From an uncultured Chloroflexia bacterium (lineage in GTDB: Bacteria; Chloroflexota; Dehalococcoidia; SM23-28-2; RBG-16-64-32): a stretch of DNA of 64,000 nucleotides. Where the stretch lies: contig CAVQVC010000001.1 in the NCBI GenBank assembly GCA_963717065.1, positions 2,055,546-2,119,545 of the forward strand, in the 5' to 3' direction. Below, piece by piece: positions 22,173 through 40,735 of the stretch. The notes under the pieces were generated by a model. That model had not been told where the DNA came from. It ran no database searches and worked only from the letters and a program-made list of their open reading frames with translations. Position 1 is the stretch's first letter. The number at the start of each line of letters is the position of its first letter. The translations under genes and the position numbers were made by a program.

Positions 22173-23582
22173 TTAGACGCCGGTTTCTGCAGCGATCTTG
22201 CCGGACTTGACCGCGCGCGCCAACGCTTGGTGATCACGCTCGGTCTGGTCGGCGTAGGAGCGCGCGAACCCGGCGATGGCTTCGGCCAGTGCGGCACCCT
22301 TGCCAACGTAACCAGTTGTCAGAGCAGCATCGCCGGCGCGACCGTGAGCCCTCGCCAGGATACCTGCACAGACGGTGACATACAGGGAGAACCCACCTTT
22401 GCCGAGCGCAGCGGTATCTAGTGAGCCCTTCATGTCGCTGAGCTGGCGCCAGTAGTACGTGGTGGCGACAAGGAGGCCGTGGTGCCAGCCCAGGAAAATG
22501 TCGCTCGCAGCCTGCATCAAACGCTGTCCGTGCACAACTCGCTCCGCCCCGGTCTTGAACGGACTCTTGCCGAGGTATGGCTCGAGGACGGAAGCCCCAG
22601 CCTCCTTTTGTTGCAGAATGATCGCGTCGTCCTCGCCGCCGCCTTCAAGAAGCACGACCGTACAGCGAGTTCCGACGCTGCCGACACCGCCTACTCGCAG
22701 CGCAGCGTCGACGATGCGAAAGCGTTCGAGGAGGCGCCGACGCTCGACATCGAGGCTGGCAAGGTACTCTCCCCAGATCTTCCCGATAGCGGCCTCCGGG
22801 TCCTCCAGCGGCACGGGGAGCATTTCAGAGATTGGCATCAGCAGGGGCGGGGCGATAAGGAAGCGCCTCTCGCCATCAATTACCGTCGTCAGACGAGCGA
22901 GCGACCGTGCTTGAGTCTTGCTCCTCGCCTTGGTCATCGTACGCTGAAAGCTCAATGATGCCTTGCGCGTCGAGGTCGCGAAAGCCTGCTGCACGCGCTC
23001 GGCGGCCACCTTGAAGTACCAGACGTCAAGCGTTGGCATTTTGCTGAACTGGCGGATCATCTGCGCGTAGAATTGGACCGCCCTTACGACGATATCGTGG
23101 CATGCCTGGTCGCTGTACCCGTGCTCCCGACCAGCCACAAAGGCGCTGGCTGCGAGCCTCTTCAAATCCCACTCCCAGGGACCCGGGTGTGTCTCATCGA
23201 AGTCGTTGAGGTCGAAGATCAGCTGACGCTCCGGCGACGCAAACAGTCCGAAATTGGCGATGTGCGCGTCTCCGCACAGTTGCGTTTGAATACGTGTAGA
23301 GGGTACGACGGCAAGGTCTGCTGCCATCACCCCCGCGGAGCCGCGAAGAAACGCGAATGGAGACGCCAGCATCCGCCCGTACTTGATCGGGAGCAATTGT
23401 TGGAGGCGGCCCTCGTCTTCGGCCTGGAGGAGGGCGATAGGATCCGCGCGGTCGTCGGCTGGAGACCACTGGCCGTGTCCTTTGATGGGGATAGTATCTC
23501 GCAACGACTTCCCGACGGCTTTGCGTTCTGGACGCGCGCCGTCGGGATGGAGTGGTTTGTGGAGCTTGTTCGTTGTCGCCAT
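22173..23582 (-). CDS. DUF2252 family protein (kinase-like fold)
   Basis: RMLASPFAFLRGSA, CGDAHIANFG, FDLNDFDE, WDLKRL, GVGSVG and LARAH; start MATTNK follows a GGAGG-like RBS. Confidence 0.9.
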   Translation of the reverse strand: MATTNKLHKPLHPDGARPERKAVGKSLRDTIPIKGHGQWSPADDRADPIALLQAEDEGRLQQLLPIKYGRMLASPFAFLRGSAGVMAADLAVVPSTRIQTQLCGDAHIANFGLFASPERQLIFDLNDFDETHPGPWEWDLKRLAASAFVAGREHGYSDQACHDIVVRAVQFYAQMIRQFSKMPTLDVWYFKVAAERVQQAFATSTRKASLSFQRTMTKARSKTQARSLARLTTVIDGERRFLIAPPLLMPISEMLPVPLEDPEAAIGKIWGEYLASLDVERRRLLERFRIVDAALRVGGVGSVGTRCTVVLLEGGGEDDAIILQQKEAGASVLEPYLGKSPFKTGAERVVHGQRLMQAASDIFLGWHHGLLVATTYYWRQLSDMKGSLDTAALGKGGFSLYVTVCAGILARAHGRAGDAALTTGYVGKGAALAEAIAGFARSYADQTERDHQALARAVKSGKIAAETGV

Positions 23583-23704
23583 GTGATGGCTCTCCCTCCG
23601 TTGCCGGAGAGCAGGTTCAACTCTGTAGAGTCTACAGCCAGACCCGATGTTACACACCGAGAAATAGCGTCGAGAGAGTACCCGGAGATCAACGACGTGT
23701 CGGT

Positions 23705-23761
23705 TTGACAAACGAACGTTTGGTAGCGTATATCTGAATGGCCCATACAAACGCTCGTTTG
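23705..23761 (+). promoter_or_regulatory. Promoter with two palindromic operators (CAAACG-N2-CGTTTG)
   Basis: TTGACA 23705-23710, TATATC 23729-23734; operators at 23709-23722 and 23748-23761. Confidence 0.8.
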
Positions 23762-23772
23762 AGTCTACTTTT

Positions 23773-24231
23773 ATGTCTGACGCCTCACCATCCGCCCAGG
23801 CCGAAGTTCTGTCCGCTCCGCACGTCCTGGAGTACCCGTACAAGCGCAGCCTGGGACCGGTTATCGGCCGTTTTTTCACATCCTTGCGCGAAGGGCGAAT
23901 TGAGGGGATCAAGACGGCCGCCGGCCGAGTGATCGTGCCACCGACTGAGTATGACCCGGAGACGAGCGAGCCGCTCTCCGAGTTCGTCGAGGTGGGCTCG
24001 GCAGGTGTCGTGATGTCATGGGCCTGGGTGACCCGGCCACGGGCCAATCACCCGCTGCAACAGCCGTTCGCCTGGGCGCTTGTGAGGCTGGACGGCGCGG
24101 ACACGGGAATGCTACACGCGGTTGACGCCGGAAGCGAGTCCGCAATGAGCACGGGCATGCGCGTGCGGGTCCGCTGGGCGAGCGAGCGCGAGGGCGGGAT
24201 GCGGGACATTGCATGTTTCGAGCCGGAGTGA
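23773..24231 (+). CDS. DUF35 OB-fold protein (like N-half of Rv3521)
   Basis: YPYKRSLGP, VPPTEYDP, PFAWALVRLDGADT and TGMRV. Confidence 0.85.
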   Translation: MSDASPSAQAEVLSAPHVLEYPYKRSLGPVIGRFFTSLREGRIEGIKTAAGRVIVPPTEYDPETSEPLSEFVEVGSAGVVMSWAWVTRPRANHPLQQPFAWALVRLDGADTGMLHAVDAGSESAMSTGMRVRVRWASEREGGMRDIACFEPE

Positions 24232-24233
24232 TC

Positions 24234-24728
24234 GTGAGCGACGAACCGCTAACCGTGATGCGCTCACCGCTCAAGCTGGAGTACACGTACACCGCAGGCC
24301 AGACTTCGTCGCGCGTCCTCCGCGGGTTCGCCGAGGGCAGGATCCTCGCCCGCCGCTGCCCGGAGTGCCAGAAAGTCTACGTGCCATCGCGAGTCAACTG
24401 CCCGATCTGCACGTCCATGATGACCGAAGAGGTGGAGCTGCCGCACACGGGTACGATCACCAAGTTTTGTATCGTGAACCTGCCGTTCGCGGCGCGAAAC
24501 ATCGACATCCCATACGTAAGCGCCTCGGTCCTGCTGGACGGGGCCGACGTGCCCATATTCCACCTGATCCAGGAGATCCCGTACGACCAGATACGCATCG
24601 GCATGCGTGTCGAAGCGGTCTGGGAGGAGCCGGCAGACAGAATCCCGGGGATGGAGAGCATCAAGCACTTCCGGCCTACCGGCGAACCGGATGTCGAGAT
24701 CGACCTGTTCGAGGACGCCGGTGCGTAA
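24234..24728 (+). CDS. DUF35 Zn-ribbon/OB-fold protein (like C-half of Rv3521)
   Basis: RCPECQKVYVPSRVNCPIC, LDGAD, IGMRVEAVW and FRPTGEPD. Confidence 0.88.
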   Translation: MSDEPLTVMRSPLKLEYTYTAGQTSSRVLRGFAEGRILARRCPECQKVYVPSRVNCPICTSMMTEEVELPHTGTITKFCIVNLPFAARNIDIPYVSASVLLDGADVPIFHLIQEIPYDQIRIGMRVEAVWEEPADRIPGMESIKHFRPTGEPDVEIDLFEDAGA

Positions 24729-25776
24729 CGTCGCCGTAGTCGCCTTCGCGCAGTCGCCCAGCGTGCGCCAGGACCCTATCCACAACGAGGTGGAGATCCT
24801 CACGCCGGTCATCGCCGAGGCGATCAAGCGGAGCGGCATCCCGCGACAGGAGATCGGCTTCACCTGCTCCGGAAGTTGCGATTACCTCACAGGCGTGCCG
24901 TTCTCGTTTGTATCGGCGCTCGACGCCGTCGGCGCCTGGCCGCCGATCCGCGAGTCGCACGTCGAGATGGACGGCGCCTGGGCGCTGTACGAGGCGTGGG
25001 TGCGCCTCCAGGTCGGTGACATCGACTCGGCGCTCGTCTACGGCTTCGGGAAGTCCTCGGTCGGCGACCCACGGGACGTCTCCGTCGCGCAGCTCGACCC
25101 CTACTACGTAGCGCCGCTTTGGCCAGACTCGGTGAGCCTCGCTGCGCTGCAGGCACGGGCGCTGCTGGATTCCAACGGATACACGGAGCGTGACTTCGCG
25201 GAAGTGGCGGCCCGAAACCTGAAGAATGCCAAGCGAAATCCGATGGCCCAGGTGAACGGAGTATACGACGTCCAGGAGTTGCTGAACGCACCCTATGACG
25301 TCTCGCCGCTGCGCGAGCACGACTGCCCGCCGATCACCGACGGCGCGGCGGCGATGGTGCTGGCCGCGGCCGACCTTGCGCGGAAAGTCAGCGAACGACC
25401 GGCGTGGATCGCCGGGATCGACCATCGCATTGAGGCGCACTCGCTGGGTGCGCGCGATCTCACGAAATCGCCTTCGGCGGCGCTGGCGGCCGAGAAGGCC
25501 GGTGCAGAACACGGCCCTCTGGACGTGGCGGAGCTGCACGCGCCCTTCAGCCACCAGGAGCTGATCCTGCGAGATGCGCTGAAGTTAGGCGAGGAAGTCG
25601 AGATCAACCCCTCCGGCGGCGCTCTGGCGGCAAACCCGATCATGGCGACAGGACTGATCCGCATCGGCGAAGCGGCCTCGCGGATCATGAACGGGACAGC
25701 GAAGCGAACGCTCGGACACGCAACCTCCGGCCCTTGCCTGCAGCAGAACCTCGTCTGCGTCATGGAGGCCCGCTGA
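24721..25776 (+). CDS. Thiolase-like/SCP2-type lipid-transfer protein (Ltp4-like)
   Basis: SGSCDYL, WPPIRESHVEMDGAWALYEAW, ELHAPFSHQE, NPSGGAL and HATSGPCLQQN. Confidence 0.88.
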   Translation: MRNVAVVAFAQSPSVRQDPIHNEVEILTPVIAEAIKRSGIPRQEIGFTCSGSCDYLTGVPFSFVSALDAVGAWPPIRESHVEMDGAWALYEAWVRLQVGDIDSALVYGFGKSSVGDPRDVSVAQLDPYYVAPLWPDSVSLAALQARALLDSNGYTERDFAEVAARNLKNAKRNPMAQVNGVYDVQELLNAPYDVSPLREHDCPPITDGAAAMVLAAADLARKVSERPAWIAGIDHRIEAHSLGARDLTKSPSAALAAEKAGAEHGPLDVAELHAPFSHQELILRDALKLGEEVEINPSGGALAANPIMATGLIRIGEAASRIMNGTAKRTLGHATSGPCLQQNLVCVMEAR

Positions 25777-26948
25777 TGGCCGAGCGGTGCGCCGTCGTCG
25801 GCATCGGGCAGACGAAGTACAGCGCCAAGCGCGTCGACGTCTCGATGGCGGGGCTTGTGCGGGAAGCGGCGCTGCGCGCGCTGGAAGACGCCGAGATGAC
25901 CTGGAAGGACATCGATGCCGTGGTTATCGGCAAGGCGCCGGACATGTTCGAGGGCGTGATGATGCCGGAAATCTACCTGGCAGACGCCCTCGGCGCGGTC
26001 GGCAAGCCGATGATGCGCGTGCACACCGCGGGCAGCGTCGGCGGTTCGACGGCGATCGTCGCGTCGCACCTGGTGCAGGCGGGCGTGTTCGAGCGGGTGC
26101 TGACGGTGGCCTACGAGAAGCAGTCAGAGAGCGACGCGACCTGGGCGCTGACGCTGCGCATACCGTTCTCGCTGCCACTGGTGGCGGGCGCGGGCGGCTA
26201 CTTCGCGCCGCACGATACGCCAGTACATCAAGCGCTCGGGCGCGCCTGACCACATCGGGACTATGGTGGCGGTGAAGGACCGGCTCAACGCGCTGCGCAA
26301 CCCCTACGCCCACCTGCACATGGAGGACATCAACGCCGAGATGGTGATGGCCTCGCCGATGCTCTGGGACCCGTTCGCGTTACCTCGAGACCTGCCCGTC
26401 CTCCGACGGCGCCTGCGCGATGGTGCTGACGAACGAGAAGGGCGCGGAGCGCGGTCGAAGGACCCGGCGTGGGTGCTGGCGACCGCGATGCGCAGCGAGC
26501 CGATGATCGTTCCCCGGCCGCGACGAGGTGAGCCCGCGCGCCGGACGCGACTGCCGCGGCGGAACTGTACCGCGAGGCCGGGATCACGAACCCGCGCGAT
26601 GAGATCGACGTCGCGGAGGTCTACGTGCCGTTCAGCTGGTACGAGCCGATGTGGATGGAGAACCTGGGCTTCACGCCGAAGAACGAGGGCTGGAAGATGA
26701 CCGCCGACGGCGCGACCGCGTTCGACGGCGACCTGCCGGTGAACCCGTCCGGCGGCGTGCTCTCCTCGAACCCGATCGGCGCGTCCGGCATGATCCGCTT
26801 CGCGGAGGCGGCGCTGCAGGTGCGCGGGCAGGCGGGCGAGCACCAGGTGGATGGCGCGAAGGTCGCGCTGGGCCACGCCTACGGCGGCGGGTCGCAGTTC
26901 TTCTCGATGTGGATCGTCGGAAGCGAGAAGCCGTTAGGTGTCAGGTGA
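25776..26948 (+). CDS. Thiolase-like lipid-transfer protein/aldolase (Ltp3-like); frameshifted
   Basis: GKAPDMFEGVMMPE, RVHTAGSVGGST, YVPFSWYEPMW, NPSGGVLSSNPIGASG and HAYGGGSQFF. Confidence 0.88.
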
Positions 26949-28570
26949 TGCAGTTCAACCTCGCGGACCTCTACGAGAGCGTCGCGGACGCCATACCCGA
27001 CCGTGAGGCGCTGGTCTGCGGCGAGCGGCGGCTGACGTTCCGGCAGCTCGACGAGCGGGCGACCCGGCTGGCGCACTCACCTTGCGGCGCAGGGGATCAA
27101 GCAGGGCGACCACATCGGGCTCTACCTGTACAACGGCACGGAGTACATCGAGGGGAGCGCTGGCGGCGTACAAGATCCGCGCCGTGCCGATCAACATCAA
27201 CTACCGCTACGTCGAGGACGAGCTCGAGTACCTGTTCGACAACGCCGACCTCGTCGCGCTCGTCCACCACCGCGAGTTCGCGCCGCGGGTCGCCTCGGTC
27301 GCGGCGAAGATGCCGAAACTGCAGACGTTCGTCTCCGTCGACGACGGCAGCGGCGCTGACGACAAAGCGCTCGGCGCTGCCGACTACGAGGCGGCGCTCG
27401 CGAAAGCATCGCCGGAGCGCGAACTTCGCGCCGCGCTCCGGGCGACGACGTCTACATCCTCTACACCGGCGGCACGACGGGCATGCCCAAGGGCGTGATG
27501 TGGCGGCACGAGGACCTGTTCTTCTCGGCGCTGATGGGCGGCGAACCCCTACGGCCCGGCGCCGCGAGACCCCGGAGCAGGTCGCTCAGTCAGCCGCGAG
27601 CAAGGGCGTGATGACCGCGCTCCCGGCGGCGCCGCTGATGCACGGCGCGGCGCAGTGGGCGGCGCTCATCAACCTGTACGGCGGCGGCAAGACCGTGCTG
27701 GCGAAGGGGAAGTCGTTCGACCCGCACCAGGTCTGGCGCCTCGTCCAGGACGAGAGGCGTGAACACGATCGCCATCGTCGGCGACGCGATGGCGCGGCCG
27801 CTGGCGGAGGCGCTCGGGGAGCCGGGCGCGACGTACGACCTCTCGTCCCTGCGGGTGCTGGGCAGCGGCGGCGCGACGTTCTCCGAGCCCGTGAAGGAGC
27901 AGCTCAAGCAGCACCTGCCGAACGCTGATCATCATGGACAACTTCGGCGGCTCTGAAGGCGGGCGCACCAGGGCCAGCACGTGGGGCGCGGCGCCGACGG
28001 CACCGCGCCCCGCTTCCGCGCCGACGCCGACACCGCCGTGCTCGACGGAGGAGCACAAGCCGCTCGCGCCGGGCTCCGGCGAGGTCGGGCTGGCTGGCGC
28101 GCCGCGGCCGCATCCCGCTCGGCTACTACAAGGACGCGGAGAAGACGGCGCGCGACGTTCGTCGACGGTCGGACGGCGTGCGCTGGGCGCTCCCCGGCGA
28201 CTTCGCGACGGTCGAGGCCGACGGCACGATCACGCTGCTCGGCCGCGGCTCGGTCTGCATCAACAGCGGCGGCGAGAAGATCTACCCGGAGGAGGTGGAG
28301 GCGGCGGTGCGCTCGCACCCCGCCGTCTTCGACGCGGTCGTCGTCGGCGTGCCGGACGAGCGCTGGGGCGAGCGCGTCGCGGCGGTCGTGCAGCCGCGGC
28401 CGGGCGCGAGCCGTCACGCTCGAGGACCTCGACACGCACTGCCGCGACGCACGTCTCCGGCTACAAGGTGCCGCGCGGGCTGCACGCTGGTGGAGGAGAT
28501 GGTGCGGCAGCCGAGCGGCAAGCCGGACTACAAGTGGGCGAAGACCATGGCGATGGAGGTGGGGGAGTGA
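26948..28570 (+). CDS. Acyl-CoA synthetase (FadD19-like); many frameshifts
   Basis: MQFNLADL, NINYRYV, YTGGTTGMPKGVMW, PLMHGAAQW, LGRGSVCINSGGEKIYPEEVE and PSGKPDY. Confidence 0.88.
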
Positions 28571-28605
28571 GTGGAGGCTGGTTGAGCGGAGCCTTAACCT
28601 ACCGC

Positions 28606-28998
28606 TTATTGAGCAACGACCTGCACGGTCGTCCCGATAGCCGGGCAAGGCTGATTTTGCTGTACCGGGAGGTTGGCAACATACCGGAGCGTCTTCAGCG
28701 CATCCACTGCATTGACTGTCCCGCTGCAGTCGTCGTCGCCCCAAGTGCGTAGTTCGCCATTGACTCCGACTGTGAACCCAATGCCCCAGAATGGGCAGGC
28801 ACTTTCGCCCTGAGGCTGCGGCAACCCGGCGGAATACCGGAGTATCCAGAGTGAGTCGACTGAGTCGATTGCGGTCGAGCAGTTAATGTCGCCCCACTGT
28901 ACAGGAGTAGCCTCGCCTCCTGCTGCCCGATTAGCAGCCGCAACCAGCATCGCACAGCCGACGACGCAGAAAATTACCCCAACAGATAGGCGTAGCAT
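28606..28998 (-). CDS. Small secreted protein consisting of a dockerin-like domain
   Basis: Hydrophobic N-terminus; two repeats WGDINCSTAIDSVDSLWILRY and WGDDDCSGTVNAVDALKTLRY. Confidence 0.7.
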   Translation of the reverse strand: MLRLSVGVIFCVVGCAMLVAAANRAAGGEATPVQWGDINCSTAIDSVDSLWILRYSAGLPQPQGESACPFWGIGFTVGVNGELRTWGDDDCSGTVNAVDALKTLRYVANLPVQQNQPCPAIGTTVQVVAQ

Positions 28999-29002
28999 CG
29001 GC

Positions 29003-29674
29003 TCAGAACTTGATCGTGACCATCGTGCCAAGGTCTGCACAGGGCTCAACCTGTGTATAGCTAAGTCCTGCAGAGTATCGAAGAACGATGTCCGAATCCG
29101 CCATGTCAACGTCGCTATCGCATTGGACATCGCCCCAGAGACCGGTGGTTGTGGTTGAGCCCTGCTGAATAGTGATGAAGCCAACAGTCGTCGATGACGC
29201 GTGTAGCTCGCGTCCTTCCTGGTCGGCGAGCTGTGTGGCGTTAACCTGAACGACCGCGGTTGCGTCTACCTCGCGTGTCGCAAACTCGATCTCAACCATC
29301 CGGAGTTGGCCCGTGACCCCGAGGAGTGAGACACCGGTGACCCGCGCCATGCCGGGCGAGAACTGCGGATTGCACAAGCCGTCGTACGCCGGCCGACAAG
29401 ACGAGACCTTTAGCAGACCGGGATCGTATTGGATGTCAAGCGTCCAGCTTCCGAGGCTGGTGCCGCTTACATTACCCGCGATGGCAATCGATGCCGTCTG
29501 TCCGCGCTGCACACTGGCTGATTCAACTGCGAAGGAGATATTTGCAGCGTCAGCGGAACTGGGTGCTTGAGACGTCCCAAGGGCGACGCACAGACCGAGA
29601 AACCCTGCAAGGCGTACGGCAGCCACCAGCGAATTCGGGCGTCGCGCCTCTCGAATAGTCCAGTCAACAGCCAT
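29003..29674 (-). CDS. Secreted cohesin-like domain protein with a C-terminal dockerin-like repeat
   Basis: Signal peptide; GQTASIAI...LGSWTLDIQYDPGLLKV...RMVEIEF beta-sandwich pattern; tail WGDVQCDSDVDMADSDIVLRY..EPC. Confidence 0.65.
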   Translation of the reverse strand: MAVDWTIREARRPNSLVAAVRLAGFLGLCVALGTSQAPSSADAANISFAVESASVQRGQTASIAIAGNVSGTSLGSWTLDIQYDPGLLKVSSCRPAYDGLCNPQFSPGMARVTGVSLLGVTGQLRMVEIEFATREVDATAVVQVNATQLADQEGRELHASSTTVGFITIQQGSTTTTGLWGDVQCDSDVDMADSDIVLRYSAGLSYTQVEPCADLGTMVTIKF

Positions 29675-29796
29675 CGGGGCACCCCTCGGCGTTGGTCTCT
29701 TCTGTCGCAGACTACTCCCGCTTTCGGGATCTGTCAACACAGGTGAATGTTTGGACTTCAGACTAGTGTTGAATGTGCGCGTCTGCACGCTAGCGT

Positions 29797-29850
29797 TTGA
29801 CAGCGCTGCACTCGTCACGCTATACCAGAAGGCACACAAACGCTCGTTTG
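29797..29850 (+). promoter_or_regulatory. Promoter with one CAAACG-N2-CGTTTG operator
   Basis: TTGACA 29797-29802, TATACC 29821-29826; operator at 29837-29850. Confidence 0.75.
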
Positions 29851-29940
29851 CCTGGCACGGGAGCACGCATTGACCGGTTCACAAACCCCCCAGATTCTTC
29901 GCCCACCCCTCGCCTTCCTTCGTCCCCCGCGAGGCTCAGA

Positions 29941-30760
29941 ATGACACAAGTCGCAGCGCCCGCACTGCTCGTCGAGCGCGACGGCCACATCGTGACGTGC
30001 ACGATGAACCGGCCCGAGGTGAAGAACGCGCTCAACCCGGAGATGCTCTGCCGGATGGCCGACGCCTGGGACCTGATCGACGGCGACCCGGAGGTGCGGG
30101 TGGCGATCCTGACCGGCGCGGATGGGGCGTTCTGCGCGGGCGCGGACCTCGACAAGCTGGTCGGGCGGATGACTCGCGGGCTGCCGGCGGAGGACGAGTG
30201 GGAGGACCGCGTGCGCAAGGACTACTCGATCATCTTCAAGGGACTCCTGCGCAACTACCAGCTCAAGAAGCCGCTGATCGCCGCGGTCGAGGGGCCGTGC
30301 ATCGCCGGGAGGCACGGAGATCCTGCAGGGGACGGACATCCGCGTGGCGGGCGAGGGCGCGACGTTCGGGATCTCGGAGGTGCGCTGGAGCCTGTTCCCG
30401 ATGGGCGGCTCGACGATCCGGCTGCGGCGCCAGATCCCGTACACGCGGGCGATGGAGCTGCTGCTGACCGGCGACCACTACCCGGCGGAGGAGATGGAGC
30501 GCATCGGCCTGATCGGCCGCGTCGTGCCGAAGGGGCAGGCGCTGACGGTGGCGCGCGAGATCGCCGAGCGCGTCGCGGCGAACGGCCCGCTGGCGGTGCA
30601 GGCGATCAAGCGCTCGGTGCAGGAGACGGAGGGGCTGCCGGAGTCGCAGGCGCTGGACATCGAGCAGCGGATCGGCCAGCCGGTGTTCCAGAGCGAGGAC
30701 GCTCGGGAAGGGCCTAAAGCCTTCAAGGAAAAACGCACGCCCCAGTTCAAAGGAAAGTAG
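29941..30760 (+). CDS. Enoyl-CoA hydratase/crotonase (EchA19-like); frameshift near 30310
   Basis: [44 protein letters not shown] and [10 protein letters not shown]. Confidence 0.9.
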
Positions 30761-30856
30761 AGCCAAGCAATGTAGCAGCCTGCCCGCCCGCGAAGCCTTC
30801 AGCCCACCCCGTGGCGACGCAGCCCAACAGTCCTTCGCCGCTGCGGACGCGCAGGC

Positions 30857-30943
30857 GGGGTGTGCAGAGGGGCAGAGCCCCTCGCCGGGGGTTTCAGGGG
30901 GTGTCCCCCTGAGCTAATAAATCAATCGGGCGGGTGGGTGGGT
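30857..30943. repeat. Palindromic REP/MITE-like intergenic element
   Basis: Tandem hairpins gaggggc-aga-gcccctc (30867-30883) and tcaggggg-tgt-ccccctga (30894-30912), followed by a gggcgggtgggtggg run; only one copy in this window. Confidence 0.4.
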
Positions 30944-31027
30944 CCATACTGAAGACACGGGCGTTCGATGACCCACCGCCCGCGTCACTCAGAAGCCGCG
31001 GGTGACGGCACAGAAGGAGAACAACCC

Positions 31028-32239
31028 ATGACCACCACAGCAGCACCCACCAACTTCAACCTCAGCGAGGAGCACAACCTCGTCCGCAGCTCGGTGAAGC
31101 AGATGCTCTCGCGGTTCGAGGGGAAGCGCGAGGAGTTCCGGGAGCTGGCGATCAACGAGAAACGATTCCCGCAGGAGCTCTGGGACGGCTTCGCGGATGT
31201 GGGGCTGATGGGTTGCCTGGTGCCGGAGGAGTACGGCGGCAACGGCGCCGGGCTGCTGGCGCTGACGGTGGGCTTCGAGGAGATCACGGCGAACGCCTTC
31301 TCCCCGGGGCTGCTGCTGGTGACGGCGATGGACAGCGCCTGCCTGCTGAAGAACGGCTCGCCGGAGCTGAAGCAGCGGTTCCTGCCCGGAATCGCCGACG
31401 GCTCGCTCAAGTTCTGCTTCGCGATCACCGAGCCGGACGCCGGCACGAACACGTTCCGCCTGAAGACGATGGCGAAGCGCGACGGCGACGACTACGTCCT
31501 CAACGGCCAGAAGACGTTCATCTCGGGCGTCGATGTGGCCGACTACATGCTGGTGGTGGCGCGGACGACCTCGGCGGAGGAACTGGAGGCGCAGGGGAAG
31601 CCGAAGTCGCAGGGGATCTCGCTGTTCGTGGTGGACACGAAGTCGCCGGGGCTGGAGAAGACGCCGCTGAAGATCGGCCTGAGCGAGGAGCTGACGCAGT
31701 GGCACCTGTTCTTCGACAACATGCGCGTGCCGGCGGACCAGCTGGTGGGGCAGGAAGGGAACGGCGTGTTCGCGATGTTCAACTCGCTGAACCCCGAGCG
31801 CATCCTGGCGGCGGCGATCTGCGCGGGGATGGCGGAGTACGCGCTGAAGAAGGCGGTGACGTACGCGCAGGAGCGGAAGGTGTTCAAGGACACGCCGATC
31901 GGGGCGTACCAGTCGATCGCGCACCCGCTGGCGGAGGTGAAGATCAACCTCGAGGCGGTGAAGCTGATGACGTACCGGGCGGCCTGGGCGTTCGACCAGG
32001 GGATGAACCCGGCGGAGGTGGGAACGTACGCCAACATGGCGAAGTTCCTGGGCGCCGACCTGGCGATCAAGGCCGTCGACGCGGCGATCGAGACGCACGG
32101 CGGCGTGGGGTTCGTCGAGGAGACTGGGCTGATCGGGCTCTGGAACGGTGCGCGGCTGTTCAAGACGGCGCCGGTGAGCCGGGAGATGCTGCTGAACTAC
32201 GTGTCGGAGTGGAACCTGGGGCTGCCGAAGAGCTATTAG
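31028..32239 (+). CDS. Acyl-CoA dehydrogenase
   Basis: VPEEYGG, FAITEPDAGTN, LNGQKTFISG, RKVF..PIGAYQSIAHPLA and THGGVG. Confidence 0.93.
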   Translation: MTTTAAPTNFNLSEEHNLVRSSVKQMLSRFEGKREEFRELAINEKRFPQELWDGFADVGLMGCLVPEEYGGNGAGLLALTVGFEEITANAFSPGLLLVTAMDSACLLKNGSPELKQRFLPGIADGSLKFCFAITEPDAGTNTFRLKTMAKRDGDDYVLNGQKTFISGVDVADYMLVVARTTSAEELEAQGKPKSQGISLFVVDTKSPGLEKTPLKIGLSEELTQWHLFFDNMRVPADQLVGQEGNGVFAMFNSLNPERILAAAICAGMAEYALKKAVTYAQERKVFKDTPIGAYQSIAHPLAEVKINLEAVKLMTYRAAWAFDQGMNPAEVGTYANMAKFLGADLAIKAVDAAIETHGGVGFVEETGLIGLWNGARLFKTAPVSREMLLNYVSEWNLGLPKSY

Positions 32240-32993
32240 GCGACTTTGGCAGCGCAAACTGCTTGCCGAGCTGGTACGCGCGCTCGAGATACCCGTTCAA
32301 CTTGTCAGTGTTGCCATCGTGCATTGCGTAAAAGTAAACGTGTTCCACGCTCTCAATGCCGGGGAAGCGGAGGCACCAGTCGTCCATCAGCCGCCCCATA
32401 GCCTCTCCGATCCCAAGCGATTCGTAGCTACGTTCGTCAAAGATAGTTGAGCTTATGATCAGGGCCTTTTGGTGCTTCAACAGCGGTATTCTTCCGCCGA
32501 CATCGCCGTTCCAGCCTTCGAGCGAAAGCTCATACGCGAATCCGAGGGTGAACACGCGCTCCACCCAGCCCTTCAGAATTGCCGGGAAGCCCACAAAGTA
32601 GACAGGCGCGATGAACGCCAGAGCATCAGCGTCGGCCACCTTTTTCTGTTGCTCGAGCACGTCCTTTGGCACTGCACTGTGGATTGCCCTCGCGATAGAA
32701 GGAAGGTCCTTGTCCCGGAGCCAGCGCCTTGCCATGAACCGCTGAAATGGGTTCTTGCAGGAGTCGAGCACGGCCTGCCGCAAGTCCCCGCGCTCAAGCA
32801 CCTCGAGAGGAGTGTCACCGGTGATGTAGCTCCCGTGGTCTCTTTCGTCGAAGACGGGGTTGAAGCGTGCGGCATAGAGGTCGACGACCTCGTAAGAGTG
32901 TCCCGCGTCTTTCAGCCCCGCTGTGAACCGCTCCAGGGCCGCATGGCAAAACGACTTGGGATTGGGGTGCGCGTATATCGTCAAGACCTTCAT
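32160..32993 (-). CDS. NAD(P)H-dependent oxidoreductase, flavodoxin-like (NQO/MdaB family)
   Basis: IYAHPNPKSF, DLY..FNP and PVYFVGFPAILKGWVERVF; 3' end overlaps the convergent ACAD. Confidence 0.88.
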   Translation of the reverse strand: MKVLTIYAHPNPKSFCHAALERFTAGLKDAGHSYEVVDLYAARFNPVFDERDHGSYITGDTPLEVLERGDLRQAVLDSCKNPFQRFMARRWLRDKDLPSIARAIHSAVPKDVLEQQKKVADADALAFIAPVYFVGFPAILKGWVERVFTLGFAYELSLEGWNGDVGGRIPLLKHQKALIISSTIFDERSYESLGIGEAMGRLMDDWCLRFPGIESVEHVYFYAMHDGNTDKLNGYLERAYQLGKQFALPKSPNSSSAAPGSTPTRSSAASPGSPAPS

Positions 32994-33154
32994 AGGTCAC
33001 CTCTTCCCACTCGTTCAGCTTAAGGAGTTTCGCCCATCGCAATCAGAGCCGAAAAGACCAGGTTGAGAAGGCCGGGTGACCCATTCATTCGACCAACGAA
33101 CGTTGGGGGTACGACAGCCAAGCCGGTCGACCCGCGACTCTGGCGGCCCCAGCG

Positions 33155-34021
33155 CTACGGAGCAGGTGGCGCCGGCGGCTCCCAGACGTACTGCTGGCCG
33201 GTGGCGACGGCGTGCATCAGCGCTTCGAGGTCAACCTGCGTGGGCTGGGGCGGCGGCTCCAGCGAGGGGAGCTTGCGGATGGTGTCGAACGCCTGCCCAA
33301 TCTGCGGCCGTTTGATCACCGGCGTGTGGCAGGCGGCGATGACCTCGATGTCCAGCTTCTGGACGCGGTCGACATGGCGCTCAAACTTCTCGGCGTCGAG
33401 TAGCTTGAACCAGGGGCTATTCATGCAGTTGAAAAGCTCGAGTCCACCCTTCCATTCCTCCGCGGGCAGTGCGCTGATGTCGTCCAGCGGCCCGGGAAGC
33501 GGCGTCGCAAACGTGTCGACGGCCCAGTAGACGCCGGTGCGGTCGTCGTATAGTCCGCGCGTCACGGGCGAGTCGAAGAGCGGGGGCGTGATCGCCGTCA
33601 GGGTGCGATCGCCGGCCTTCCATGAGTCGCCGTCGTTAACCCAGCGCATGCGGTCCATCGGGAAGTTGAACTCGCAGCCGTGGCGCTCCGTGAGGAACCA
33701 GGTCACAACGAGCGTGGCGTTCGGGCAGGCCTCCATGACCTGCGGCAGGTTGCCGGCGTGGTCAACGTCGTCGTGCGTGAGGAATATCCAGCGGACGTCG
33801 CCGGGATCAACGATCGAGAATACGTCCTTCAGCCACTGTTCGCGGTTGGCGGGTGTCCCCGTGTCGACGATGATGGACTCTGGGCCCTTGATAACGAGCG
33901 AGTTGAGATAGACGAACAGGGGGCCGATGGCGGCTTCCTGCAACTGTTGAATGAGCCATGTGTCATCGGCGACCTTGATAGGCGGGTGATGGACGGCGGG
34001 TTTAACAGGGGCGAACGACAT
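33155..34021 (-). CDS. Metallo-beta-lactamase fold protein (FprA/ODP-like di-iron domain)
   Basis: VDTG, FLTHDDVDHAGNL, PPLFDSP, WAVDTF and ACH. Confidence 0.85.
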   Translation of the reverse strand: MSFAPVKPAVHHPPIKVADDTWLIQQLQEAAIGPLFVYLNSLVIKGPESIIVDTGTPANREQWLKDVFSIVDPGDVRWIFLTHDDVDHAGNLPQVMEACPNATLVVTWFLTERHGCEFNFPMDRMRWVNDGDSWKAGDRTLTAITPPLFDSPVTRGLYDDRTGVYWAVDTFATPLPGPLDDISALPAEEWKGGLELFNCMNSPWFKLLDAEKFERHVDRVQKLDIEVIAACHTPVIKRPQIGQAFDTIRKLPSLEPPPQPTQVDLEALMHAVATGQQYVWEPPAPPAP

Positions 34022-34060
34022 GATTAACCTCCTGAGGTGTGAGTGCGCGGGCCGAGTATA

Positions 34061-34783
34061 TCAGAGGGAGGCGTTGAACCGGGGCGCAGTTGGCTGCGCA
34101 CTCCGGCCCGGCCTGGCCACGGCGAGCAGGTTCGGGCGTACGATGATCATCGGCGGTACCGGCGGGAGGTGCGTCAGCCGATCAGCCCGCACGACCTCGA
34201 AGCCGGCTTCCCGTACAAAGCGCTCAGTGTCGCGGTTGGGGTGGCATCCCGCCCCGAACCAGTTCCAAACCGGATTCGCGATGTCCTGCGCAAACGCTCC
34301 CGCACGATTGGCGTAGCGCACGTGCTCGTAGAGGCGGAACTCCCCGCCCGGCCGGAGCACACGTTTGACCTCCGCCAGCGCCCTGCGCGGATCGCGCACG
34401 CTGCACAGGACCAGCGTATCCACTACGAAGTCGAAGCTGGCGTCCTCGAACGGCAGATCCTCCGCCGACGCCTGCCGCAACTCGATCGCTGCCGCCGCTT
34501 CCGCGGCCCGCGGGCGGGCGCGCTCCAGCATGTACGGGTCGGGTTCAATGGCCACGACACGCGCGCCCTTAGGGTAGTGCCGGAAATTTGCCCCCGTTCC
34601 CGCTCCGATCTCCAGGACATCACCCGAGACATCCCCCAGCATCTCCGCCCGCACGGCGCCGAAGAACTTCTTCTCCTGCGACGCCATCATCCGGTCGTAG
34701 ATCGCCGCGAACCACTTGTGTCCCTTCATCGCCTTCTCCTTCCGCTCGTGGAACCGGTCCGCGGCATCGCCGCGTCGTGTCAT
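34061..34783 (-). CDS. Class I SAM-dependent methyltransferase (METTL7-like)
   Basis: VLEIGAGTGAN, LPFEDASFD, TLVLCSV, YEHV and GCHPNRDT. Confidence 0.9.
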   Translation of the reverse strand: MTRRGDAADRFHERKEKAMKGHKWFAAIYDRMMASQEKKFFGAVRAEMLGDVSGDVLEIGAGTGANFRHYPKGARVVAIEPDPYMLERARPRAAEAAAAIELRQASAEDLPFEDASFDFVVDTLVLCSVRDPRRALAEVKRVLRPGGEFRLYEHVRYANRAGAFAQDIANPVWNWFGAGCHPNRDTERFVREAGFEVVRADRLTHLPPVPPMIIVRPNLLAVARPGRSAQPTAPRFNASL

Positions 34784-35217
34784 TCCTCTGCCAGCGTCTT
34801 CCGAATCTGCTCGGCGTGCTCGCGATCGTGGCTCGCCACATTCTCCAGGATACTGAGCACGCTGTATTCCTCGTGCCCTATCTTTTGCAGCCGGTAGAAG
34901 TCCTTCTCCTCGACAGTGGAGACCGCGTCCAGCAGTCCGGCGCGAGTCGCGTCCAAGGATGAGACGACCACGTCCGCTGTGTTCAGATCACCGTTTTGGA
35001 CGGCAACAGCCGGGTGGCCGTTGAACACGGAGATGAGCTGGGTGTAGATCCGCTCCGAGTCACGAACATGCTCTAGGATTCGCGACACGGGCCAGCTCCC
35101 GCGCCGCGCTCGCCCCAGGTCCTTCGGCGATAGGTTCTTGACCACTGCCTCGAATTCGGACCGCGCCTCGCCCAGCTCTTGCATCAAATCGGCCTTGTCG
35201 GACTCGAATTGGCTCAT
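34780..35217 (-). CDS. DinB family protein
   Basis: WPVSRILEHV and HDREHAEQI His motifs. Confidence 0.8.
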   Translation of the reverse strand: MSQFESDKADLMQELGEARSEFEAVVKNLSPKDLGRARRGSWPVSRILEHVRDSERIYTQLISVFNGHPAVAVQNGDLNTADVVVSSLDATRAGLLDAVSTVEEKDFYRLQKIGHEEYSVLSILENVASHDREHAEQIRKTLAEE

Positions 35218-35223
35218 CGTGAC

Positions 35224-36009
35224 CTACCGTCCCTTCGTCGCCGCGATGGTCAAGCCACGCGTCTCAAACGCCGCCGCGGATGACTCGTGCTTCGATCCCG
35301 AGAACACGTCTATCTGCTCGCCCCAGCGCACGCCGGAGAACCCGGAGTGCTCCAGCGCCCATTCCCACTCTGCTTCCAGCAGAGCACCGGCTATTCAGTC
35401 ACGCCAGAGGTCGATGTCGGCTTTCGCATCGTCCGGCACCACCTTGTGCACCACGATGTCGCCGGCCTGAAGCCGTCCTCCGGGCTTCAGGACGCGGTTG
35501 ACCTCCTGCAGCACCGCCATCTTGTCCGGACAGAGGTTGATCACCCCGTTGCTGATCACGACGTCGATCGAGCTGTCAGCCACTGGCAGGGCCTCCGCGT
35601 AAGCCTCGCGGAACTCGACGTTCGTAATTCCCGCTTCGCGGGCGCCTGCTTCAGCCTTTTCCAGCATCGCCGGCGTCATGTCAACGCTGATCACCCGTCC
35701 CGATGCACCGACCTGGCGCGCCGCAATCAAGCTATCGAGCCCCGCGCCACAACCGACGTCCAGCACCGTCTCGCCAGGCGTCAGATCACCCATAGAGAAC
35801 GGATTGCCGGTGCCTGCAAACGACTCGACGGTCCCTGCGGGCAGCGAGTCGATGACTGATTCCGGATAGCGGAGCATCATTGCCAAGGGCTTACCAGTGT
35901 GAAAGTGCGCCCCCTTCTCGGGCTCATTAGCGACTTCCGTGTACTTCTCGCTGATCTGACCACGCAGAGCGTCCGTGTCGACGTCCACGCGCTTCACCTC
36001 GATCGTCAT
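35224..36009 (-). CDS. Arsenite methyltransferase (ArsM)-like protein with predicted selenocysteine at in-frame UGA 35395-35397
   Basis: SFAGTGNP, LDVGCGAGLD, ISNGVINLCPDK and DLWRD-[TGA]-IAGAL...; the frame stays open for 56 sense codons to TAG at 35224-35226; hairpin follows the UGA. Confidence 0.85.
35367..35385 (-). promoter_or_regulatory. Candidate bacterial SECIS hairpin
   Basis: mRNA UGA-AUAGCCGGU-GCUCUGCU-GGA-AGCAGAGU: stem starts about 10 nt after the UGA, with G in a small apical loop. Confidence 0.65.
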
Positions 36010-36671
36010 TTAACACCTCCCAATACGGGCCTACCTTCGCTCTGCCACTCCGGCCAACCGCCGTCCAGCCGCACAACGTCGAATCCATTTGCGAGGAGAA
36101 GAGCCGCGGCTTCGTCCGCCAGAAGGCAGTACAGGCCGCGGCAATAGGCTATGATTCGCCGGTCACGTGGGAGTTGATCGAGAGAATCCGGAAGGTCCTC
36201 GAGCGGAATATTGATGGCACCACGTAAGTGTCCGGCCTCGAACTCCGGTCGTGGCCTCACATCCAGCAGCACGGCGTTCTGCCGCGACAGGGACGCGGCT
36301 TCGTCACGAGATACCACGTTGCCCTCGTCTCTCGTCGAATGGAATTCTTGCGCGAGCTGCTGCATTTCTGCGAGGCGCGACTCCGCGACGCCTCGCAGCG
36401 CTACCGAGAGGTTCATCACAGACGGATCGGCAAGACGGTAAATGATCATGTTGCCCTTCCTCTCCGATTCGACGAGACGCGCCGCACGCAATATCTGCAG
36501 GTGTTGCGAAGAGTTAGCGACGGACATTCCCGTATCCTGGGCGAGAGCATCAACGTGGCGTGGGCTCTGGGAGAGGATGTCGAGTAGCTCGAGGCGCTTC
36601 GCGCTGGCGAGCGCCTGCGCCACGCGAGCGAATTGGGGGTACATTTCGTCCTTGAATCTGCGCTGGCTCAT
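36006..36671 (-). CDS. ArsR-family regulator with C-terminal rhodanese domain
   Basis: ALASAKRLELL, SQHLQILR, LLDVRP..EF..GHL.GA and YCRGLYC. Confidence 0.92.
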   Translation of the reverse strand: MSQRRFKDEMYPQFARVAQALASAKRLELLDILSQSPRHVDALAQDTGMSVANSSQHLQILRAARLVESERKGNMIIYRLADPSVMNLSVALRGVAESRLAEMQQLAQEFHSTRDEGNVVSRDEAASLSRQNAVLLDVRPRPEFEAGHLRGAINIPLEDLPDSLDQLPRDRRIIAYCRGLYCLLADEAAALLLANGFDVVRLDGGWPEWQSEGRPVLGGVK

Positions 36672-36677
36672 TGACGT

Positions 36678-36720
36678 AGTATGGCGACAAGAACCGGGTC
36701 TCGTCAACTATTCGCTTGAA
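36678..36720 (-). promoter_or_regulatory. Leaderless promoter of the ArsR operon with an overlapping inverted repeat
   Basis: Minus strand TTGACG (36707-36702), 18 nt, CATACT (36683-36678), 6 nt, ATG; TCAA-N8-TTGA at 36704-36719 overlaps the -35. Confidence 0.6.
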
Positions 36721-36777
36721 TTCTAGACCACAATCCAGGCGCCACAACGATCGGATGTCCGTGTGCAACATCAGACG

Positions 36778-36831
36778 TTGACAAACGAACGTTTGATAGA
36801 CTACAACTGAACCGACACAAACGCTCGTTTG
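36778..36831 (+). promoter_or_regulatory. TetR promoter with two CAAACG-N2-CGTTTG operators
   Basis: TTGACA 36778-36783, TACAAC 36802-36807; operators at 36782-36795 and 36818-36831. Confidence 0.82.
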
Positions 36832-36891
36832 CCTGCCCTGAGACTATCTAGCTCACACCCATTTTTGCGAAACAAACTCGCTCAGAATGAG

Positions 36892-37532
36892 ATGACAGCC
36901 GCCACAGCCACCGCCGTAGCAGCCGCCGACAGCCGCACGACGCGCGACCAGATACTTGACGCGGCGGAGCGGCTGTTCGCGCAGCGCGGATTCGCGGGGG
37001 TGTCGATGCGGGACATCGTGGCGGAGACCGACCTGCGCAACCAGGCGAGCCTGTACCACCACTTTCGCAACAAGAAGGCGCTCTACGAAGCGGTGCTGCA
37101 GCGCGGGCTGGACGGCATCCTGATGCTGATGCCAGGGCCGGGGACGGCGACCAGCGTGGGGCCGAACATCGACAGGCTGCTGGATTACCTCTCGATGCAC
37201 CCGCACCTGGCGCAGCTCATCCAGCGGGCGTCGATGGACGACAGCCGCTACCTGAAGAAGGCGATCAACTCTCTGCTGCGACCGGTGTACTCGCAGGGGC
37301 GGCGCGCGCTCACAGGCGCGGACCAGATCTGGGAGGCGGACGAGATACCGCACCTGGCGGCGGGGCTGTACCTGCTGATCTTCGGCTACTTCGCGAACGC
37401 GGACCTGCTGAAGACGGTGGTGGGGCAGGACCCGCTGAGCCCGGAGGCGGTGGACCGCCAGCGCCGCTTCCTCAAGGTCGCGATTGCGAAACTGCTCGGC
37501 ATCGAAGCTTCCGGCGACGGAAGGAGAAGCCG

Positions 37533-37536
<4 letters not shown>
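36892..37536 (+). CDS. TetR/AcrR family transcriptional regulator
   Basis: TRDQILDAAERLFAQRGFAGVSMRDI...SLYHHFRNKKALY. Confidence 0.93.
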
Positions 37537-39551
<2,015 letters not shown>

Positions 39552-39606
39552 CGGAGTCATGCATCGTGGGGCGAACGAATCCACGTAAGGACCAGGAGAA
39601 CGTCAG

Positions 39607-40729
39607 ATGAACAGGAGACTTGCGGACGAATTCGGGATAGAGTTCCCGATCTTTGCCTTCAGCCATTGCCGTGACGTGGTCGCGGCGGTGAGCCGCGCCG
39701 GGGGGTTCGGCGTGCTCGGGGCGCTGGCGTTTAGCACGGAGCAGCTCGAGATCGAGCTGAACTGGATCGACGAGCACGTCGACGGCAAGCCCTACGGCGT
39801 GGACATCGTGATGCCGGCGACGATCGCTGGGCGGCGACCTCTCGTCGCTGAAGAACATGATCCCGCCGCAGCACAAGCAGTTCGTCGACGACCTGATGAA
39901 GAAGTACGAGGTGCCTGATCTGCCCGACGGCGAAGGCTCCTGGGACGGGCTCCTGGGCTGGGTGCATGACACCGCTCGAAGCCAGGTGGACGTGGCGCTG
40001 CAGCACCCGATCAAGCTGATTGCGAACGCGCTGGGGACACCGCCGCGGGACGTGCTGGACAAGGTGCACGAGCACGGCATCAAGGTGGCGGCGCTCGTAG
40101 GAACGGCGGCGCAGGCGCGGACGCAGGTGGAGGCGGGGACCGACATCATCGTCGCGCAGGGGACGGAGGCGGGAGGTCATACCGGCGAGATCGCCACCAT
40201 GGTGCTTGTGCCGGAAGTGGTGGACGCGATCAGTCCGACGCCGGTGCTGGCGGCGGGCGGCATCGGCAGCGGCCGGCAGATGGCGGCGGCGATGGCTCTC
40301 GGCGCCGACGGCGTCTGGACGGGCTCCATCTGGCTGACGGTGCGCGAGGCGGACACGAGCGAGGTCGTCGTCGACAAGCTGCTTCACGCCGGGTCGCGAG
40401 ACACCGTGCGCTCGCGATCGTGGACGGGAAAGCCGGCGCGCTTCCTAAAGACGGCCTGGACGGAGGAATGGGACAGCCCCGAGTCGCCGGGGGCCCTCCA
40501 GATGCCGCTCCAGTACATGCTGATCGCCGACGCCCAGCGCCGCGTCATGCGCGCGAAAGAGGGTACGAAGGCAGCACAGCTCGCGGGGATGCCCGTTGGC
40601 CAGATCGTCGGGCGCATGAACGCCGTCCGCTCCGCCCGCGACGTGATCTTCGACATCGTGACGGAGTACGTGGAGTCGGTGGAGCGGATGAGCGCGGAAC
40701 TGCCCAAGGTGGAGGAGCAGGCTCGGTAG
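39607..40729 (+). CDS. Nitronate monooxygenase/FabK-like FMN oxidoreductase; frameshift near 39830
   Basis: PIFAFSHCRDVV, QGTEAGGH, LAAGGIGSG and GVWTGS. Confidence 0.88.
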
Positions 40730-40735
40730 GGCCGG

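Follow-up and report, generated by a model that had tools for sequence, protein, structure and literature searches.

Two TetR-family repressors of catabolic genes provide the closest described parallels for the regulatory system considered here. PaaR of Thermus thermophilus HB8 (TTHA0973) represses phenylacetate catabolism, is released by phenylacetyl-CoA, and recognizes the consensus CNAACGNNCGTTNG, which comes from Sakamoto et al. as quoted in PMC6651687. The site obtained for this protein by REPSA selection, AACAAACGTTTGTT, is bound with a KD of about 5 nM (PMC6651687). PsrA of Pseudomonas (PA3006, PDB 2fbq) is a long-chain fatty-acid-responsive repressor that is autoregulated and controls beta-oxidation genes, and its box has been given as C/GAAAC-N2-4-GTTTG/C (PMC13104628). 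The subject of this report is a 64-kb stretch of DNA from an uncultured Chloroflexota bacterium (contig CAVQVC010000001.1, positions 2,055,546 to 2,119,545), referred to below as the window, in which the 14-bp palindrome CAAACGNNCGTTTG (CAAACG-N2-CGTTTG) recurs at three promoters, P7, P8 and P9. The palindromes are likely the operators of an autoregulated repressor, and the product of a tetR gene located behind P9 is very probably the protein that binds them.

When set beside the described systems, the window sites prove to be exact instances of the PaaR consensus and share its operator feature (CNAACGNNCGTTNG / AACnAACGTTnGTT), and the REPSA-selected PaaR site is the exact form present at orthologous promoters in six genomes. 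Similarly, the PsrA box covers CAAAC-N4-GTTTG, a core that is present in all 12 sites found in this genome. An earlier examination of the window, made from the sequence alone and called here the sequence-only reading, had described the operator as new, a view that cannot be kept because the site fits both the published PaaR consensus and the PsrA box. The likeness to PaaR extends further, in that PaaR is autoregulated and encoded by the first gene of a catabolic operon, and its effector is a CoA thioester. The two systems differ in phylum and in gene content, given that a P450 resembling CYP125 and CYP124 and beta-oxidation-type genes are present here. Among NCBIfam models, that of PsrA fits this TetR's DNA-binding domain best, and PsrA ranks as the second distinct protein when solved structures are searched by profile. 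This match is limited to the N-terminal 65-90 residues or so, with a ligand domain that is unrelated in sequence. The PsrA model (NF053516) scores 54.1 bits against a cut-off of 300, over residues 14-77 only, and the TetR is therefore not a PsrA orthologue.

The actinobacterial cholesterol-catabolism repressors KstR (Rv3574) and KstR2 (Rv3557c) offer another parallel, since they are TetR proteins that act through many palindromic operators on a large lipid-catabolic gene set that includes a CYP125-type P450, an acyl-CoA ligase, a hydratase, dehydrogenases, and DUF35/SCP2-thiolase-type enzymes. The KstR operator is TnnAACnnGTTnnA. In the KstR and KstR2 motifs as quoted by the sequence-only reading, AAC and GTT are two bases apart (AAC-N2-GTT), whereas four bases separate them here (AAC-N4-GTT), and thus the statement that the local motif differs from both was correct. 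Orthology with KstR is ruled out by a score of 17.7 bits against a cut-off of 280 (NF033703). Furthermore, the host is not an actinobacterium; the closest relatives of the TetR come from metagenome-assembled genomes (MAGs) whose sources are named, for example, Chloroflexi bacterium or Dehalococcoidia bacterium.

The closest solved full-length relative is Rv0302 of Mycobacterium tuberculosis ('AcrR', PDB 5d18, 5d19, 6a4l and 6a4w), which matches at an E-value of 1e-18 over positions 7-205, ranks second in a Foldseek search, and is about 23-24% identical to the TetR. This protein loses DNA binding in the presence of palmitate (PMC6768106). The promoter probe of that study bears no likeness to the site described here.

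By analogy, the TetR would be expected to work like repressors of the PaaR and PsrA type and to share their type of site. Lipid-catabolic systems composed of a TetR protein and a palindrome are common and the site matches those of PaaR and PsrA, so such a mechanism is not surprising, and the type of site is already known from these two proteins. What is new is that this repressor and site are linked with a CYP125/124-like P450 in Chloroflexota, Binatia, and other MAGs, and that the regulon has grown to 158 kb in this lineage. Literature searches turned up no account of this regulon for either Chloroflexota or Binatia. Through a sharply defined operator, about nine operons of an uncultured bacterium are joined in one unit, and these operons hold P450, SDR, NMO, ETF, and KstD-like flavoprotein genes, many family-III CoA-transferases, acyl-CoA dehydrogenases, hydratases, and DUF35/SCP2 thiolases. 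The joint presence of repressor, site, and P450 in Binatia and other MAGs provides a testable handle on pathways that so far have been guessed from gene counts.

Sites in the window and in the genome

An exact search of the window returned five matches to the palindrome, at 23709, 23748, 29837, 36782 and 36818, in agreement with the sequence-only reading. No copy appeared in any of 100 dinucleotide-preserving shuffles of the window, where 0 are expected. When as many as two mismatches are allowed, seven matches are found compared with a shuffle mean of 2.33, and the two that are added, at 33093 and 52790, are weak. The first of these, CCAACGAACGTTGG (33093-33106), is a two-mismatch palindrome between two minus-strand genes of a block at 32160-36707 that is described below, and its matrix score is under the listing threshold of 14.

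The host genome (G000; coordinates outside the window are given on its contig C1) comprises 3.0 Mb in three contigs, has 64% G+C, and is rated 64% complete. It carries eight exact copies of the palindrome compared with 0 of the reversed control. A position-weight matrix (PWM) was built from the exact sites of this genome and from the sites adjoining orthologues of the tetR gene. Scanning the genome with this matrix, a check that the sequence-only reading had itself suggested, yields 12 sites that score 23.8-29.9 at nine promoters, with the next best at 18.5. All 12 are confined to one stretch of 158 kb (C1:1934324-2092363). Thus, the original description of five copies at three promoters holds for the window, but understates the regulon, which has at least nine promoters and 12 sites, with most of the promoters (P1 through P6) outside the window.

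Direct reading of the three regions confirmed the layout that had been proposed for the window promoters, namely TTGACA-N18-TAyAnC with operators over the -35 element and/or downstream. All three are on the plus strand and have an 18-base spacer. Promoter P7 (23705-23734) combines TTGACA at 23705-23710 with the -10-like hexamer TATATC at 23729-23734. Its first operator, O1 (CAAACGAACGTTTG, 23709-23722, an exact match with a PWM score of 29.3), overlaps both -35 hexamer and spacer. The second, O2 (CAAACGCTCGTTTG, 23748-23761, exact, 27.4), starts 13 bases past the -10-like hexamer and 12 bases ahead of the ATG at 23773. Promoter P9 (36778-36807; TTGACA at 36778-36783 and TACAAC at 36802-36807) is arranged in the same manner, with O1 (CAAACGAACGTTTG, 36782-36795, exact, 29.8) on the -35 hexamer and spacer and O2 (CAAACGCTCGTTTG, 36818-36831, exact, 28.3) located 10 bases after the -10-like hexamer. 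At both P7 and P9, O1 begins inside the -35 hexamer (TTGACAAACG...) with an overlap of two bases and fills the spacer. Promoter P8 (29797-29826; TTGACA at 29797-29802 and TATACC at 29821-29826) has no full operator over its -35 element, and a half-site, CGTTTG, abuts the hexamer on the upstream side. Its single operator (CAAACGCTCGTTTG, 29837-29850, exact, 28.3) is again 10 bases after the -10-like hexamer.

Outside the window, a minus-strand promoter at 1977113/1977070 has the same architecture (TTGACA-O1-N-TACAAA-O2), and there O2 separates a strong ribosome-binding site from the start codon. Several 5' leaders also carry GC-rich inverted repeats of the CCCCTC...GAGGGG type (window 29880-29945, L035:1-112, and G000:C1:1986075-1986130). 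In addition, the string GCTCAGAATGACA around the start codon is common to the hydratase gene and to the tetR gene of a relative, and five extra bases in the window tetR move its start to the second ATG.

Conservation of the site with tetR

Among 301 sampled genomes of the class, orthologues of the tetR gene (E<=1e-30) are present in eight, and in all eight an exact site is located at the promoter of tetR itself or of the operon to which it belongs. One of these genomes (G244) is unpublished, and the count without it is seven of seven. The window genome and G244 carry the form CAAACGNNCGTTTG, and the remaining six (G286, G123, G119, G201, G216 and G230) carry one copy each of AACAAACGTTTGTT. 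This form lies on a TTGACA directly upstream of tetR in G201, G230 and G216, is found 0.8 kb upstream with one gene between in G119, and is placed 6.9 kb upstream in G286 and G123, where it heads an operon that ends in tetR and the P450 gene. A single operator in G123 is followed by one operon with two DUF35 genes, two SCP2-thiolase genes, and the ligase, hydratase, dehydrogenase, tetR, and P450 genes.

The form AACAAACGTTTGTT occurs once each in seven of the 301 genomes, six of which are exactly the orthologue holders that lack CAAACGNNCGTTTG, and its reversed control occurs in none. In a further 16 genomes, CAAACGNNCGTTTG occurs as a stray single copy, which does not exceed the control, given that the reversed pattern is found in about 22 genomes. 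No TetR homologue was found within 1.5 kb of these 16 stray sites or of the copy of AACAAACGTTTGTT in the low-GC genome G043, and the stray sites are therefore read as chance.

Metagenomic contigs extend the association. An exact site lies upstream of tetR in seven of 10 loci whose TetR proteins are 56-91% identical to that of the window, and a one-mismatch site is present in another. The closest of the loci with enough DNA (L034, L037 and L043) keep both O1 and O2 with the same spacing as P9. One locus (L036) has only about 31 bases upstream of the start, which is too short to test for a site. Furthermore, contigs from three Candidatus Binatia MAGs and one Burkholderiales MAG, with TetR identities of 57-61%, have a site on a TTGACA upstream of tetR in four of four cases. 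Contigs with homologues of 35-37% identity carry a related composite palindrome, CCAAACGATCGTTCGTTTGG, before a P450-tetR-NMO unit with a divergent SDR gene, again in four of four cases, and no site was found upstream of the gene in L044 (36% identity). Beside this unit in these contigs, on the minus strand (L147:3412-5739), is a gene for a 776-residue protein in which an APH phosphotransferase domain is joined to an SCP2 sterol-carrier domain and DUF7065/DUF7064.

The motif is thus present upstream of orthologous tetR genes, and its two forms amount to one. The -35-overlapping CAAACGAACGTTTG and the variant CAAACAAACGTTTG are one base apart when both are placed in the CAAAC-N4-GTTTG frame. 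Both forms of the site occur within the Binatia group and within the family f55, and the one-base change is therefore best viewed as neutral drift rather than a change in spacing. The conserved core of the system is composed of tetR, the CYP125/124-like P450, SDR, and NMO-family genes, along with DUF35/SCP2-thiolase, ligase, hydratase, and dehydrogenase genes.

The protein that probably binds the site

The candidate repressor gene (P0001; 36892-37536, plus strand) is the first gene of the P9 operon, is intact, and encodes 214 residues according to its translation and Pfam analysis. The TetR_N domain (PF00440) scores 59.6 bits against a cut-off of 24, over residues 42-89 of the long open reading frame. 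An AlphaFold model (pLDDT 80) is all-helical with 10 helices, and all of the top Foldseek matches are TetR-family structures, although the resemblance is generic (17-24% identity). A profile search of solved structures identifies lipid-responsive TetR proteins as the closest relatives, with Rv0302 followed by PsrA (4e-15) and Mce3R (6e-15). Of the 16 TetR_N matches in the genome, only this one adjoins a site. No close paralogue was found in the genome, where the next TetR is 44% identical and only over the DNA-binding domain. In 29 orthologues, the recognition helix, L(K/R)NQASLYHHF, shows little or no variation. The earlier suggestion that the local TetR is an autoregulated binder of the palindrome fares well, considering that tetR is the first gene behind two palindromes and that the site travels with orthologous tetR genes across phyla.

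Adjacency alone does not prove which protein binds, and the operators might belong to some other regulator, with the TetR being merely one of the regulated genes. This could be the ArsR-rhodanese protein whose gene (36009-36707) is divergent from the tetR promoter, or a factor encoded elsewhere. Such an arrangement is improbable, given that the block that contains the ArsR-family gene is absent from the close relatives L034 and L037, which retain both operators and tetR. In G123, the f55 genomes, and the Binatia contigs, no regulator other than the TetR accompanies the site. Moreover, the form of the site is that bound by PaaR and PsrA, which are themselves TetR proteins.

If the TetR is accepted as the binder, it might still be argued that it is the orthologue of Thermus PaaR and that the regulon degrades phenylacetate-type aromatic acids, with phenylacetyl-CoA as the effector. 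The site matches exactly the PaaR consensus quoted in PMC6651687, and its variant is identical to the REPSA-selected site. As in Thermus, a regulated operon begins with tetR, and the regulon includes an acyl-CoA ligase. However, no PaaABCDE-type oxygenase component is present among the Pfam-annotated regulon genes (the genome elsewhere was not searched for paa genes), and the gene that always accompanies tetR encodes the CYP125/124-like P450. This reading as a whole is slightly less probable than control by another regulator.

Proposed mechanism

A repressor that is specified by the local tetR gene could act in the following manner. A TetR dimer would bind a 14-16-base site, ACAAACG-NN-CGTTTGT, through the core CAAAC-N4-GTTTG. 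At four promoters of this genome, occupancy of the first operator, which covers the -35 hexamer and spacer, would exclude RNA polymerase, and occupancy of the second, about 10-17 bases past the -10-like hexamer, might block initiation or early elongation. The remaining promoters would depend on a single operator just after the -10 element. The repressor would thereby control its own operon (tetR, the CYP125/124-like P450, SDR, and NMO genes) and presumably at least eight further operons for CoA-thioester breakdown within the 158 kb.

The least probable explanation, that no DNA-binding protein is dedicated to the repeats, which would instead be copies of a promoter module multiplied by duplication or recombination, or a hairpin of the 5'-leader RNA, can point to a very similar -35/spacer/-10 architecture at four promoters, to operator flanks that are identical at some of them (ACACAAACGCTCGTTTGCCT occurs twice), and to downstream copies that are probably transcribed, but founders because the -35-overlapping copies are not transcribed, an RNA stem would have at most five pairs, three of them A-U, and the palindrome is kept beside tetR in other phyla amid different surrounding sequence. 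Within this genome, the sequences around the four TTGACA promoters show no relation to one another beyond the -35 hexamer, operators, and -10-like hexamer, and constraint therefore acts on the sites and not on a duplicated block.

Several observations weigh against the proposal of an autoregulated TetR that controls a large regulon. First, the -10-like hexamers end in C (in A at P3, outside the window) in place of the usual T, and a sigma-70 scan did not call P7, P8 or P9. The scan demands a T at the end of the hexamer and all three end in C, which explains the missing calls, and the promoter assignment is therefore a reading and not a result. Second, release of the repressor by a lipid-like effector, most likely the P450 substrate or its CoA thioester, is pure conjecture. 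Third, several regulon genes are frameshifted in the window, and if these shifts are real then part of the regulon is decaying. Fourth, a close relative (L035, 90% identity) has no site in the 109 bases upstream of its ATG, where a GC-rich inverted repeat fills the leader, and its operators may thus lie past the contig end. Finally, the other genomes have only one exact site each, so that the large regulon either is lineage-specific or has sites elsewhere that are too diverged for exact matching.

The P450 and the possible substrate

CYP125 enzymes are steroid C26-monooxygenases and CYP124 enzymes are omega-hydroxylases of methyl-branched lipids. The intact P450 of G123 (L122:10567-11829) matches the reconstructed ancestor CYP125MRCA at 2e-163, CYP125 at 1e-103, and CYP124 at 2e-98. 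In bit scores, the P450 reaches 547 with this ancestor (PDB 8vxi) and 350 with the best natural CYP125. Enzymes of the CYP125/124 type are thus present in Chloroflexota and Binatia MAGs.

The P450, ligase, hydratase, and dehydrogenases, along with the DUF35/SCP2-thiolase pairs, fit terminal oxidation followed by beta-oxidation of a bulky or methyl-branched side chain. A scheme of this kind has been proposed from gene content for SAR202 Chloroflexota (PMC5395668). CYP125, CaiB/BaiF, and SDR genes are named there, and no regulator (PMC5395668).

The sequence-only reading had considered the TetR to be a functional analogue of KstR, a question on which the evidence is divided. In favor is the P450 beside tetR in the intact relative, with its affinity to CYP125 and CYP124. 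On the other side, the SCP2-type thiolases of the intact relative match Ltp2 at 2.5e-20 and are no closer to it than to BbsB or other SCP2 thiolases. Also, the ring-opening marker KshA_C (PF19298) was not found in the genome, which is 64% complete and rich in frameshifts, so that absence is not proven. A steroid is therefore only one possibility for the substrate. A comparison of the acyl-CoA ligase at 1e-40 gave no match, the threshold being too strict.

It can be proposed tentatively, and with rather more doubt than confidence, that one conserved TetR/operator pair, always accompanied by a CYP125/124-like P450, governs, as a master switch, how uncultured Chloroflexota and Binatota break down lipids that resemble sterols, hopanoids or isoprenoids, and that it has expanded here from one operon to a 158-kb, nine-promoter regulon. 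If so, the operator would be a sequence tag for mapping, from genomes alone, the pathways for 'recalcitrant alicyclic carbon' that have long been suggested in bacteria of this sort, and the repressor would be a ready-made sensor for the substrate of those pathways.

Operon content and sequence quality

The operons of the window, all on the plus strand, were delineated with Pfam and, for those of P7 and P8 and the P450 gene, a tblastn map. The map for the P7 operon (23773-28570) used the intact G123 operon, with 50-80% identity, along with Pfam analysis of G123. This operon encodes a DUF35/ChsH2-type OB protein (23773-24231), a second DUF35 protein (about 24240-24728), and an SCP2-type thiolase (24721-25776), all intact, followed by a second SCP2-type thiolase that is frameshifted (25755-26948) and an acyl-CoA ligase with at least four frame changes (26948-28570). 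The P8 operon (29941-32239) consists of an enoyl-CoA hydratase gene (29941-30760) with one frameshift near 30308 and an intact acyl-CoA dehydrogenase gene (about 30968-32239). In the P9 operon, tetR is followed by the gene for a cytochrome P450 of the CYP125/CYP124 group (37533-38772), which is spread over three frames with shifts near 37912 and 38500. Next are the SDR and NMO-family flavoprotein genes (38636-40729), seen as SDR fragments at 38636-39067 and 38988-39551 and an NMO-family flavoprotein at 39857-40729 whose N-terminal part is in another frame.

Many genes are split over two to four frames in window positions 24700-40800 and also in G000:C1:1934400-1943400. The frame breaks sit at short G or C runs. 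In a metagenomic relative (L037, 77-89% nucleotide identity), the hydratase, dehydrogenase, tetR, and P450 genes are each a single open reading frame, with the P450 frame intact at 415 residues. Among short pieces from relatives (contigs of four DNA runs), some that span 37912 and about 38490 have single-base gaps, which offer a weak hint at most. No RNA data set was found to contain 36600-38800. Judging from these comparisons, the frameshifts in the window are probably indel errors of long-read assembly. Uncorrected errors of this kind would also explain the rating of 64% completeness for a genome in three contigs.

Reading frames downstream of the six promoters outside the window were characterized by Pfam scans. 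Behind P1 are hydantoinase/oxoprolinase-type genes, two family-III CoA-transferase genes, a DUF35 gene, and an SCP2-type thiolase gene. The hydantoinase/oxoprolinase genes, which resemble those of acetone or acetophenone carboxylases, are directly behind the P1 operator (G000:C1:1934469-1937550) and would join the regulon. Promoter P2 is followed by genes for an NMO protein, ETF beta and alpha, two FAD_binding_2 flavoproteins, and an SRPBCC protein, and P3 by genes for a CoA-transferase, two acyl-CoA dehydrogenases, a fused double CoA-transferase (855 aa), and a thiolase-like protein. The corresponding genes encode a hydratase, a CoA-transferase, another hydratase, and a dehydrogenase for P4; a thiolase, an SDR protein, and an alpha/beta hydrolase for P5; and a fused double CoA-transferase (788 aa) and a dehydrogenase for P6. 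The 855- and 788-residue proteins have two family-III CoA-transferase domains per chain and are encoded at G000:C1:1969776-1972343 (minus strand) and 2019624-2021990 (plus strand).

Two other features of the window adjoin these operons. A DUF2252 gene (22176-23585, minus strand) is divergent from P7. Between the P8 operon and the tetR promoter is a 4.5-kb block on the minus strand (32160-36707) with genes for a flavodoxin-like reductase, a metallo-beta-lactamase-fold protein, two methyltransferases, a DinB-family protein, and the ArsR-rhodanese fusion. In the two relatives that lack this block, tetR comes 0.7-1.3 kb after the dehydrogenase gene.

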